From positions 1 to 17,035 of the IMG/VR virus record IMGVR_UViG_2671180417_000010: DNA of 17,035 nucleotides; one strand, given 5' to 3'. Every line of letters begins with the position of its first letter. The stretch's first letter is position 1. This DNA comes from a virus. Taxonomy: Duplodnaviria; Heunggongvirae; Uroviricota; Caudoviricetes. The notes beneath the pieces are model-generated. The model was given only the letters and a program-made list of their open reading frames with translations, was not told the origin of the DNA and did not search any database. Shown piece by piece: positions 12,617-13,534 of this stretch. A program made the position numbers and the translations under genes.

Positions 12617-12881
12617 GATGTGACCCCTGACGAATACGGGCGGCGAATACAGCAACACAACCGGACGGGCAACGGCTACGCGCTTCGCGTTCCGTCCAGG
12701 CGGTTACGTGGATGATTTGAGATTCTCCGGCACTCAGGGCCAGAAAACGCCACACAAAGGCCGTTTGTGTGTGTACAAGGTGTGGTATATGATTTACGGC
12801 AACCATAACGGCTCCTAGTTTACGTTGTTGGTTAGAAGCCCTGCGAGTGGTAACGACACTTGCGGGGCTTTGTCTTTTCAT
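12609..12881 (-). CDS. Hypothetical small protein, paralogue family member (65 aa from ATG 12806, or 90 aa from ATG 12881)
   Basis: Two candidate starts: ATG 12806 (GGAGCC 3 nt upstream) and ATG 12881 (AAGGT upstream). C-terminal ...FVWRF...TEREAR...ARIRQG shared with 12152..12322. First gene of the minus-strand early operon. Confidence 0.45.
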   Translation of the reverse strand: MKRQSPASVVTTRRASNQQRKLGAVMVAVNHIPHLVHTQTAFVWRFLALSAGESQIIHVTAWTEREARSRCPSGCVAVFAARIRQGSHHA

Positions 12882-12897
12882 CGATTACCTTGATAAA

Positions 12898-12979
12898 GGT
12901 GTCAGCCACTATATTAGTAACGGGTGTCAGCCACGTCAATAGTGTTTTTCCGTTTTCTTGTGTGTATACTGTCAGCCAC
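12898..12979. promoter_or_regulatory. Three direct repeats GGTGTCAGCCAC (12898..12909, 12923..12934, 12969..12979) in the divergent switch region; candidate operators
   Basis: Read directly. They lie between the divergent early operon (start 12881 or 12806) and the plus-strand RHH-like gene (start 13001). A TATACT -10-like hexamer at 12965..12970 abuts the third repeat. Confidence 0.5.
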
Positions 12980-13000
12980 CTAATAACGAGGAAATCAGAT

Positions 13001-13180
13001 ATGGCAACAAAAGCAGTTAATGCAAAATCCAAAAAGCTTGAGGCTCGAGTACCACACGCAATAGCTGATGCTGTAGAAAATTTAAAGGAAGATGGCGAAA
13101 GTACAGGGCAATTTATCGTTTCGGCACTTGAAGGCGAGATCAAACGCCGCCAGCGCCGCAAGGCCAAAGAATCAGAATAA
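13001..13180 (+). CDS. Small DNA-binding protein, ribbon-helix-helix-like (candidate repressor)
   Basis: 59 aa from ATG 13001 with GAGGA upstream. Pattern KKLEARVP (beta strand), HAIADAVENL (helix) and STGQFIVSALEGEI (helix) fits an Arc/CopG-type fold. Fold inferred from pattern only. Divergent from the early operon. Confidence 0.5.
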   Translation: MATKAVNAKSKKLEARVPHAIADAVENLKEDGESTGQFIVSALEGEIKRRQRRKAKESE

Positions 13181-13222
13181 TCACTATCAGCGCCGTGGTG
13201 TGAGGTATTACGGCGCATTGCT

Positions 13223-13411
13223 ATGCAGGACAACACAATGACCGATAAAGAATTGACCAAAACATTATCACCGGCACGGAAAAGACGGCGCAGAAAGATA
13301 GAGCATGAATCAGAAAGATTCGCACCATGTGCTTTTGCCCTTGAGCAATTCCTTAAAGAGTACAGGGAAAAGCGCTCATTGCAGGTATGGCAACGAACTG
13401 AACCAGACTGA
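13223..13411 (+). CDS. Hypothetical small basic protein (57-62 aa)
   Basis: ATG at 13223, or at 13238 with AGGA 8 nt upstream. Arg-rich segment ARKRRRRK. Followed by a plus-strand terminator at 13507..13534. Confidence 0.4.
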   Translation: MQDNTMTDKELTKTLSPARKRRRRKIEHESERFAPCAFALEQFLKEYREKRSLQVWQRTEPD

Positions 13412-13506
13412 TTGCATTGCCCACCAGCCTGATAGCGGCTATCATCCCCGTGCTTATGTTTGGGATCACACACACAAACGGCGCAGCGGGTTATCTGTTC
13501 AGAAAG

Positions 13507-13534
13507 GCGGCTCCATTTCGGGGCCGCTTTTTTT
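13507..13534 (+). terminator. Rho-independent terminator for the plus-strand RHH/small-protein unit
   Basis: GCGGCTCC-ATTTC-GGGGCCGC (8-bp stem with one G-U pair) followed by TTTTTTT. Confidence 0.6.

Follow-up and report, generated by a model that had tools for sequence, protein, structure and literature searches.

The founding 2018 study of Gram-negative PICIs described the global repressor of these satellites as "unclear" and called the difference from Gram-positive islands a mystery. Published work has designated AlpA as the required activator for the induction of related elements, and in published experiments AlpA alone induced them, no repressor being detected there. Which factor, then, keeps the early operon of such an element silent? 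This question is raised by a 17,035-nucleotide stretch of viral DNA (Caudoviricetes; IMG/VR record IMGVR_UViG_2671180417_000010, positions 1 to 17,035), hereafter the window, which encodes an integrase, AlpA, a DUF927 primase-size protein, SSB, a capsid protein, an S78 protease, a portal protein and TerL. This composition agrees with the published description of capsid-forming PICIs (EcCIEDL933-like) and Gram-negative PICIs, in which int, alpA, a replication module and the element's own capsid, protease, portal and terminase genes are gathered within ~15 kb. Judged from its gene content, the element is a capsid-encoding P4/PICI-type phage satellite, with both DNA strands used in its predicted switch (Table 1).

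An initial annotation had proposed that a ribbon-helix-helix (RHH)-like protein is the master repressor holding the replication operon silent until helper induction, with neighbouring repeats as its operators. The window was compared with ~65 related loci from many Enterobacterales genera, across which the order Icd-like (-), RHH (+), AlpA (-) is kept, and parts of the 1.1-kb switch region were matched in 1,462 of 5,426 complete E. coli genomes. Two 50-kb stretches of E. coli CFT073 contained the helper prophage and core genes, and the model island EcCICFT073 was not found in them.

Table 1. Coordinates of the features discussed; the control switch region of the window comprises the RHH gene, the operators, both promoters, the long ORF and the antisense RNA
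Feature	Position	Strand	Remarks
C4-type immunity RNA (12374-12461) and a1b1 target (12529-12578)	12374..12578	-	Rfam
First early gene, Icd/Kil-like, 65 aa	12609..12806	-	NF033153 at 1.1e-17
Putative cis-antisense RNA, ~80 nt	12800..12878	+	against translation start region of first early gene
Long read-through ORF, 263 codons	12832..13623	-	antisense to both small genes, spans the operators
Candidate operator O1, GTGTCAGCCAC	12899..12909		at about +1 of leftward promoter
Leftward sigma-70-like early promoter	12911..12939	-	TTGACG, 17 bp, TAATAT; consensus scan
Candidate operator O2, GTGTCAGCCAC	12924..12934		in leftward promoter spacer, abuts -35
Rightward RHH-gene promoter, -10 TATACT	12965..12970	+	read from sequence
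Candidate operator O3, CTGTCAGCCAC	12969..12979		imperfect copy, overlaps -10 of ylcI-like promoter
RHH gene, YlcI/YnfO family, 59 aa, predicted repressor	13001..13180	+	profile matches, AF2
Inverted repeat, 11-bp stem	13190..13216	+	between the two plus-strand genes, right edge of swappable cassette; RNA fold
Second small gene, 57 aa, arginine-rich N-terminus	13238..13411	+	only in E. coli/Shigella
Intrinsic terminator of plus-strand operon	13502..13534	+	13-bp stem, U7
alpA/vis-like regulator gene	13681..13869	-	PF05930 at 5.4e-17; convergent with RHH operon

The 59-aa plus-strand ORF of the initial annotation is present and matches known family models, namely the NCBIfam model NF041551 for YlcI/YnfO proteins, of which it is a member (60.6 bits for a cut-off of 30, E = 1.1e-16), and phrog_949 (3e-23); the identical protein is named YlcI/YnfO by PGAP, and a Pfam search gave no match. 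Its RHH-like nature, for which structure prediction had been suggested as a check, was borne out by a confident AF2 model (pLDDT 89.4) with an extended N-terminus followed by two helices. This is the beta-alpha-alpha fold of ~45 residues of the Arc/MetJ/CopG superfamily, including the G-x-S/T/N turn at the start of helix 2 (G32-E33-S34-T35, invariant or nearly so in 46 sequences). Positions 11-15 are hypervariable in the family. The model is that of a monomer, on which the DNA-reading beta-ribbon was placed by alignment to Arc, and this ribbon would read the DNA of the sites in the RHH dimer. Among the relatives, the start of the ORF is conserved, a Shine-Dalgarno sequence is present and nearly all copies are 57-67 aa long, apart from two longer ones (101 and 104 aa). 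Of 50,697 phage records searched with the protein by tblastn, none reached E <= 1e-3, and close relatives of it are thus absent from deposited phage genomes. The YlcI/YnfO family takes in two E. coli K-12 y-genes. K-12 ylcI is RHH-like and adjoins cos in DLP12, and no comparable operator array was seen when its upstream region was read by eye. Literature searches retrieved no paper in which these satellites are linked to an RHH or YlcI/YnfO protein, and nothing relevant on YlcI/YnfO/DUF3950 or on sRNAs of O-island 51.

The repeats are 11-bp GTG-N5-CAC sites. The three direct copies initially reported amount to two exact 12-mers, at 12898 and 12923, while the third (12968, ACTGTCAGCCAC) matches at 10 of 12 positions; the exact core TGTCAGCCAC common to all of them is present in three copies, where chance would give 0.01. 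The -10 of the leftward sigma-70-like promoter lies between O1 and O2, a layout (O2 in the spacer, O1 at +1) conserved in the relatives, and GTCAA/TTCAA is kept beside O2 in nearly all loci. By analogy, this leftward early promoter would be the counterpart of P4 PLE. The -10-like TATACT was found where annotated, and TATACT, TATAAT or TATAGT stands at the equivalent place in most relatives; no clear -35 is recognisable in the sequence of this rightward promoter. Both promoters are defined by consensus matches only. The positions of the sites, in the leftward spacer and at +1 as well as over the gene's own -10, fit predicted repression plus autoregulation. Another possibility is that the RHH protein activates one or both of the divergent promoters, for instance from O2, located at about -48 from the rightward start. 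Some RHH proteins can activate transcription, such as AmrZ, or Mnt on Pmnt, and a promoter devoid of a recognisable -35 is typical of activator-dependent promoters. However, O1 at +1 and O2 within the 17-bp leftward spacer occupy positions of steric repression and O3 covers the -10 of the RHH gene itself, which makes activation quite unlikely.

The repression reading is further supported by the variation of the sites among loci, since every locus has an N5 variant of its own, present in two to three copies, and the variable centres follow the protein. Residues 12 and 14, the two predicted base-contacting beta-strand residues, covary with the site sequence in about 52 loci (ARI 0.79, AMI 0.84, 0 of 20,000 permutations), values that are inflated by shared ancestry as the protein and its adjoining sites are physically linked and co-inherited. 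The operator argument draws mainly on the concerted identity of the two to three sites within a locus and on swaps between near-identical flanks. The core 10-mer of the window was retrieved in other loci only at the same intergenic positions and only with a KKLEA-type strand motif (KKLEA, RKLEA). In a single specificity class represented in four genera, no change is seen in 27 of 30 columns inside the operators, whereas outside them this holds for 21 of 50. The survey provided about a dozen pairings between residue pairs and operators, with, for example, sites of the type GTGTCGGACAC in L002. The suggestion that the repeats are operators of the 59-aa protein is thereby supported by these sequence comparisons.

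Elements with identical RHH proteins and sites differ in their replication module (DUF927, RepA-helicase or primase-family) and fall into two AlpA types, and an identical AlpA occurs with different cassettes and sites, so that the sites do not covary with the AlpA type or the replication module. These observations weigh on the proposition that the repeats bind another protein of the element (AlpA/Vis, the integrase or excisionase, or a replication initiator acting on iterons), the small ORF being incidental. Binding of P4 Vis around PLE/PLL and the presence of iterons in PICI origins are precedents for it, but the independence of the sites from both AlpA and the replication module, together with their dependence on the RHH beta-strand residues, renders it very improbable. 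Exchange of the whole unit was also observed: the E. coli loci L006 and L007 have ~99% identical flanks and carry at the same place an Arc-like RHH gene with its own palindromes (GGTAATTACC x2 or GGTGACCAC x2), and the inverted repeat at its right edge is identical in both despite the differing cassette to its left. A swappable specificity cassette formed by the protein and its sites, resembling an immunity region, is the best explanation of this pattern.

The second small ORF, initially placed at 13223..13411, belongs to a genuine family (phrog_21027 at 1.6e-15, with E. coli and Shigella contributing 36 protein clusters that share the conserved core SPARKRRRRKIEHESERFAPCAFALE.FLKEY), and only its proposed start requires revision: the alignments begin at the sixth residue, making the ATG at 13238 the likely start of a 57-aa protein. 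No Pfam or toxin-family match was obtained for this protein, predicted by AF2 with moderate confidence to form a helical hairpin (pLDDT 70). The clean plus-strand terminator described beyond it is genuine (centroid -21.2 kcal/mol, z -4.4), the minus strand folding weakly at -14.6 kcal/mol with no U tract. This operon could suggest that the RHH protein only regulates its own expression, for instance as an antitoxin or a regulator paired with the 57-aa protein, with no role on the early operon. Such a restricted function is unlikely. The 57-aa gene was not found in any of the non-E. coli loci, where the RHH gene and its sites persist, Arc-type cassettes replace the RHH gene yet retain the same downstream gene, and it is the divergent promoter, not that of the RHH gene, which carries the two best sites. 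An adjacent and co-conserved cognate toxin gene, as in type II toxin-antitoxin systems, was therefore not found.

The long minus-strand ORF covering this region had been judged spurious, a verdict that fails at the family level. Since the wobble positions of the frames on the two strands coincide, codon-position periodicity cannot separate them, and stop-codon depletion and synonymous resampling were used in its place. Of 64 relatives, 62 have no stop in the minus frame over the length of the ylcI-like CDS (29.9 would be expected), and the 150-nt intergenic region contains 0.38 stops per locus in this frame versus 4.1-4.6 in the other minus-strand frames, indicating that the frame is selectively kept open. 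In most relatives it is free of stops over the RHH gene and the AT-rich operator region, with a median open stretch of 322 nt below the RHH start, and usually runs in frame into the Icd/Kil-like gene. In the loci L002 and L004, the stop-free translations reach 368-369 aa and end in an Icd-like domain, as expected from a P4-type organisation. In the window, the long ORF shares its frame with alpA, a single stop standing between them, and ends at 12832, 26 nt before the ATG of the Icd-like gene (12806) and out of frame with it, so the P4-like nesting is broken there. Pfam gave no match for the 263-aa translation.

One might argue that only one strand is real. The plus-strand ORFs could be shadows of the long ORF, since the minus frame is open far beyond expectation and coinciding wobble positions, as calculated from the coordinates, favour shadow ORFs; yet a conserved start, Shine-Dalgarno sequence and length, a confident RHH fold and an RHH-typical conservation are not those of a shadow. 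Conversely, a minus ORF arising as a chance shadow is at odds with the frame-specific depletion of stops in a non-overlapped region of 41% GC, which shadowing cannot produce. Both versions seem extremely unlikely. Both strands appear to be used, as likely functional overlapping genes on opposite strands, and to take expression of the minus ORF as a refutation of the RHH repressor, as the initial annotation did, appears to be a false dichotomy.

By analogy, the long ORF most likely corresponds to eta of P4 and would be translated as a read-through frame; in the left operon of P4, which includes vis/ORF88, eta and kil are nested, PLE lies inside eta, and the translation of eta lets upstream transcription, that of PLL, read through. 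Several features are shared with P4: the homologue of AlpA/Vis located immediately upstream on the same strand (45% identity between the window AlpA and P4 Vis, E = 1e-16), a long ORF running from the end of alpA/vis over an internal early promoter and ending as an Icd/Kil domain in most relatives, a C4/CI-type RNA in the window, and a 65-aa first gene matching the NCBIfam model that also recognises the Kil part of P4 Eta (NF033153, 1.4e-20 for the latter). Pairwise BLASTP between P4 Eta and the Icd-like ORFs of the window was not significant, and their relationship thus rests on this shared model. In contrast, neither a protein repressor nor an RHH gene on the plus strand of eta exists in P4, whose PLE is constitutively active and regulated by CI RNA at a post-initiation step, whereas the equivalent promoter here is flanked by candidate RHH operators and the RHH gene lies antisense inside the eta-like frame. 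The window also departs from P4 by the out-of-frame junction of its long ORF with the Icd-like gene.

Between the operators and this first gene, the imperfect 9-bp-stem hairpin previously noted is instead a 15-bp plus-strand stem at 12835-12871, with three G-U pairs and a U-rich tail (about -27 kcal/mol; z -4.4 for the enclosing 90-nt stretch). It would close a putative antisense RNA comprising a helix P1, a stem-loop with CUCC in its loop and this terminator hairpin, with a candidate -10, TATGAT, at 12788-12793. In 48 of 51 loci, a -10-like hexamer stands at a fixed distance. Folding favours the plus strand over the minus strand in 58 of 59 loci (G-U pairs 197 vs 20), compensatory changes affect 16 of the 22 pairs, and 96.7% of the pairing cells are satisfied on the plus strand versus 83.2% on the minus strand, with 0 of 500 shuffles reaching the observed values. 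No Rfam family matches the element. The hairpin is a conserved plus-strand terminator of a probable short antisense RNA directed against the first early gene, with a predicted 5' end and target.

Just downstream, the window contains a C4-family RNA with its a1b1 target in the same transcript (RF01695 at 69.1 bits, gathering score 45; RF03163 at 46.8 bits, gathering score 46.7), an arrangement characteristic of C4/CI RNA immunity that the initial annotation did not report. Both lie inside a 168-codon ORF (12152-12658) which ends in a second Icd-like domain (NF033153 at 2.8e-13, residues 121-163). The C4 RNA was expected to be a general partner of the RHH gene but, in a further difference from P4, was not found in 20 other RHH-bearing loci; the control layers are hence not a fixed set.

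Observed here are the predicted fold, the sites with their conserved positions and their covariation with the protein, selection that keeps the frame open, and the structure of the RNA, and the best overall explanation, to which we assign a probability of about 0.6, combines an RHH switch, its exchangeable cassette, an AlpA-driven read-through bypass, an antisense RNA and a C4 layer. DNA binding, repression and the bypass are what we infer in this model. The plus-strand operon (rightward promoter, RHH gene, 57-aa gene and terminator) would produce the RHH protein, whose dimers would recognise the 11-bp GTG-N5-CAC sites. With the strong sites O1 and O2 occupied, RNA polymerase would be blocked and the early operon (Icd/Kil-like gene, C4 RNA and replication genes) would stay silent, and the weaker O3 over the gene's own -10 would provide negative autoregulation. 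The long ORF, which begins right after alpA and crosses both small genes in antisense and then the operators up to the first early gene, would be translated when helper-induced AlpA drives upstream transcription, by analogy with P4 eta/kil. Its translation would shield the read-through transcript from Rho termination, and this read-through would bypass the repressed promoter and collide with the convergent repressor operon. Translation of the toxic first gene is probably blocked as well by the short antisense RNA of the plus strand, whose end is the 12835-12871 terminator, and in the window the C4 RNA would add a P1/P4-type layer further downstream. The sequence evidence points to the gene and its adjoining sites as an undescribed repressor in a satellite class without a known one, and this repressor may be a minor or redundant layer, given the AlpA-only induction in published work. 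A broader proposition is more speculative: Gram-negative PICIs and cf-PICIs would carry an exchangeable RHH immunity cassette with a residue-to-base code, antisense inside a translated read-through frame, helper-induced AlpA-driven transcription and translation would silence the repressor by convergent collision and antisense pairing and open the early operon, and a cis-antisense RNA would guard the toxic first gene.

Each part of this arrangement has precedents. The immI region of P22 has the RHH repressors Arc and Mnt at the divergent promoters Pant and Pmnt, with operators of 21 bp for Arc and 17 bp for Mnt; it differs from the present locus, where three 11-bp GTG-N5-CAC sites, a single RHH gene instead of two and no antirepressor gene were seen, and whose YlcI/YnfO protein is not detectably related in sequence. 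The immI region of P1/P7 (c4 RNA, icd, ant) likewise groups a C4 RNA, its a1b1 target and Icd-like ORFs in one operon. Its promoter is under the C1 repressor in P1, whereas the present operon would be under the putative RHH protein and has an additional Icd-like gene upstream of C4 and no identified ant gene. As in SaPIs and Gram-positive PICIs with Stl/Rpr, a repressor gene is divergent from the excision/replication operon of a phage-inducible island. Stl repressors, in contrast, belong to the large helix-turn-helix type and are inactivated by proteins of the helper; the predicted repressor here is a 59-aa RHH protein, and AlpA activation is the documented trigger in the Gram-negative class.

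If true, this reading would supply the missing repressor of the Gram-negative PICI/cf-PICI class and a functional prediction for the uncharacterised YlcI/YnfO family. The survey constitutes a natural data set on RHH specificity, directly open to swap tests, and the cassettes could give orthogonal small repressor-operator pairs and may predict mutual exclusion among satellites. The switch itself would represent a new bistable type made of overlapping genes on opposite strands. At such loci, annotation pipelines either drop one of the two strands or label it as a pseudogene.

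The control region between alpA and the early operon (see table) suggests a ribbon-helix-helix (RHH) repressor-operator switch, as in immI of P22, here grafted onto a P4-type eta/kil/AlpA framework, a reading to which we give a probability of about 0.6. Its support in silico comprises a predicted fold, sites, covariation, conserved geometry, cassette exchange, selection for an open frame and structure in a plus-strand RNA. A 2018 paper on PICIs called the global repressor of the Gram-negative elements 'unclear', and our literature search found no paper linking an RHH protein to them.

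Coordinates of features in the window
Feature	Position	Strand	Details
Genes for large terminase, portal, S78 prohead protease and HK97-type capsid	1100-7488	-	
168-codon ORF	12152-12658	-	contains C4 RNA and its target; ends in a second Icd-like domain
C4 RNA	12374-12461	-	Rfam, 69 bits
a1b1 target of C4 RNA	12529-12578	-	Rfam
First early gene, Icd-like/Kil-like	12609-12806	-	65 aa
-10-like hexamer	12788-12793		
Structured RNA	12788-12878	+	no matching Rfam family
Hairpin	12835-12871	+	15-bp stem, U-rich tail
Long antisense ORF	12832-13623	-	263 codons
Predicted operator O1	12899-12909		over ~+1 of leftward promoter
Leftward promoter, sigma-70-like	12939-12911	-	TTGACG-17-TAATAT, among the repeats
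Predicted operator O2	12924-12934		in spacer of leftward promoter, beside -35
Predicted operator O3	12969-12979		overlaps -10 TATACT of rightward promoter
RHH gene	13001-13180	+	59 aa
57-aa gene	13238-13411	+	
Terminator	13502-13534	+	13-bp stem, U7
AlpA/Vis-type regulator	13681-13869	-	PF05930, 5.4e-17
Integrase	14236-15465	-	
sok antitoxin RNA	16319-16493	-	full-length, 114 bits

Both small plus-strand ORFs proposed in the initial annotation were found, as was the clean terminator behind them, and structure prediction agrees with the RHH-like pattern noticed in the first: the AF2 model, built on a 46-sequence alignment (pLDDT 89.4), has an extended N-terminus and two helices, and the alignment displays a classic G-E-S-T turn and hypervariable residues 11-15, the predicted DNA-reading strand. 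The protein matches NCBIfam YlcI/YnfO (1.1e-16), phrog_949 (3e-23) and, weakly, an Arc-like PHROG, with no match in Pfam; its homologues in a large protein collection form 88 clusters in Enterobacterales. The literature search returned no paper on the function of the YlcI/YnfO family. K-12 YlcI itself (L079, 6252-6446, in the DLP12 prophage) has an RHH-like sequence and adjoins a lambdoid cos site upstream of nohD; no GTG-N5-CAC array was seen upstream on reading the sequence. The family thus occurs in two or more kinds of genomic setting.

Three direct repeat copies had been reported as possible operators. Two are exact 12-mers, and the third agrees at only 10 of 12 positions; the exact 10-mer common to all, TGTCAGCCAC, is present in three copies, where chance would give 0.01. 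Comparison across 8 E. coli loci and 67 from one-genome-per-species contigs supports the operator assignment, the site variants tracking residues 12 and 14 of the RHH protein, which from alignment with Arc should contact bases and are followed by an invariant Arg16. The order first early gene (minus strand, often Icd-like), about 190 bp, RHH gene (plus strand) and convergent alpA (minus strand) is conserved, with synteny kept in Xenorhabdus, Pectobacterium, Yersinia, Proteus, Klebsiella and others, and every locus carries two or three copies of its own GTG-N5-CAC 11-mer at the same positions, in direct or inverted mutual orientation. The same pairings recur in different genera: K and E with GTGTCAGCCAC (four genera), M and T with GTGAAATACAC (ten genera), and, each in several genera, R and D with GTGTCGGACAC, Q and N with GTGAATCGCAC, and T and A with GTGTTGAACAC. 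The association (ARI 0.79, AMI 0.84; 0 of 20,000 permutations as high) is inflated by shared ancestry, so that three other observations weigh more: among loci of the K,E class no variation is seen in 27 of 30 operator columns, compared with 21 of 50 columns elsewhere in the intergenic region; the window's 10-mer is found in other loci only at operator positions and only alongside KKLEA-type proteins; and the cassette is swapped in loci L006 and L007.

In these two loci, flanks about 99% identical (Icd-like gene, hairpin, second ORF, terminator, alpA) enclose at the same location an Arc-like 57-aa RHH protein in place of the YlcI-type one and its sites, with palindromes of its own (GGTAATTACC or GGTGACCAC, two copies of either). 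The right-hand recombination boundary is the RHH stop codon (window 13181-13216), just past which stands an 11-bp-stem inverted repeat, identical in elements with different cassettes. An element of E. coli O111 (L005, 1226-2470) has a tandem pair of control modules: one with a YlcI-type RHH protein of 101 aa owing to an insertion, then a complete one comprising hairpin, GGTAATTACC operators, Arc-type RHH and a further copy of the window's 57-aa gene. The latter gene, confined to E. coli and Shigella, remains with the flank when the cassette is swapped; its product, a helical hairpin predicted with moderate confidence, has a conserved arginine-rich stretch, RKRRRRK, then an invariant ERFAPCAF motif, and the stretch, speculatively, recalls arginine-rich nucleic-acid-binding peptides. 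AlpA or a replication protein was considered as the binder of the repeats. Two observations speak against this: the same RHH gene and sites are found alongside DUF927, RepA-helicase or primase-family replication modules and two AlpA types, and different cassettes accompany an identical AlpA.

The placement of O1 and O2 is compatible with steric repression of the leftward promoter, and that of O3 with weaker autorepression; the first base of O3 is not G because the overlapping -10 forces it.

The long antisense ORF had been dismissed as spurious. Its composition is odd and it has no family match in Pfam, NCBIfam or PHROG searches (annotation pipelines label the frame pseudogene or hypothetical protein), yet it is under selection to stay open. 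Of 64 distinct relatives, 62 lack any stop in it across the RHH coding sequence, where synonymous resampling predicts 29.9. Over the 150 nt preceding the RHH start, at 41% GC and free of plus-strand genes, stops average 0.38 per locus in this frame (53 of 64 loci stop-free), against 4.1-4.6 in the other two minus-strand frames and 1.3-2.6 in the plus-strand frames. Below the RHH start the open stretch has a median of 322 nt and in most loci terminates together with the first early gene, at its stop codon; in loci L002 and L004 the translations reach 368-369 aa with a C-terminal Icd-like domain. With the RHH gene on the opposite strand, both DNA strands thus appear to be used. P4 has the same arrangement: its 214-codon eta shares sequence with the 3' end of vis, reads across the internal PLE region as well as the CI RNA, and has Kil as its terminal part; Kil matches the same Icd-like model (1.4e-20). 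P4 differs in having no plus-strand RHH gene. As summarised by Mageeney et al. (PMC10111431), full-length P4 Eta is made from transcripts of the upstream late promoter alone and is coupled to the alpA homologue; translating it averts termination. Unlike L004 and P4, where the ORF overlaps the 3' end of alpA/vis, the window has alpA and the ORF in one frame, with just one TAA and 19 sense codons between them (13623-13869, minus strand). Since the ORF stops at 12832, 26 nt short of the Icd-like ATG and in a different frame, the eta/kil-type nesting is broken here, with ribosome cover nearly continuous.

What had been described as an imperfect 9-bp hairpin is a 15-bp stem, and its plus-strand RNA folds better in 58 of 59 loci (mean -24.4 vs -16.8 kcal/mol), with 197 G-U pairs compared with 20 for the minus strand. 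Aligning 52 sequences reveals three helices, 22 pairs in all, 96.7% of cells being standard pairs on the plus strand and 83.2% on the minus, with compensatory changes in 16 of the 22; none of 500 shuffles matches these values, and slid controls drop to 33-47% pairing. The outer helix includes the sequence complementary to the start codon of the first gene, a small stem-loop exposes CUCC (anti-Shine-Dalgarno), and the third part is the terminator hairpin, followed by a U-rich stretch. Upstream, 48 of 51 loci have a -10-like hexamer (TATGCT, TAGACT or TATGAT) at constant spacing; its promoter status is uncertain because it lies inside conserved N-terminal codons. We read it as a probable antisense RNA acting in cis, some 80 nt long and aimed at the site where translation of the Icd/Kil-like gene begins.

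Downstream of this gene, the C4 RNA and the 168-codon ORF form a second, more literally P4-like eta unit. C4 RNAs of Gram-negative PICIs have been noted in the literature; none is present in 20 other RHH-bearing loci, so the RHH protein is more than an accessory of C4 immunity.

We propose that the RHH protein would repress the early promoter and its own gene. AlpA is required for induction in published work on related elements; helper-induced AlpA could drive translated read-through, which would bypass the repressed early promoter and run counter to the convergent repressor operon, and the antisense RNA would restrain the toxic first gene. Our confidence in the read-through model is lower than in the repressor-operator switch.

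The window also encodes a DUF927 primase-size protein, SSB, capsid, prohead protease, portal and large terminase. The latter four make the element more like a capsid-forming PICI than a classical P4-like satellite, and the whole gene set, with integrase and AlpA/Vis-type regulator, agrees with that described for published examples such as EcCIEDL933. The 1.1 kb around the switch is 99.5-99.6% identical to elements of E. coli 042 and O157:H7, and segments matching it are present in 1,462 of 5,426 complete E. coli genomes, next to differing replication modules; the region between alpA and the early operon is therefore a mosaic control module common to many elements. The Rfam int-alpA motif (RF02996) has no match in the window at the gathering threshold and is present in several related loci (L028 5019-5087, L033 4961-5029, L052 347-413, L068 4969-5037). 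Past the integrase end of the element, the full-length sok RNA marks a hok/sok-type locus.
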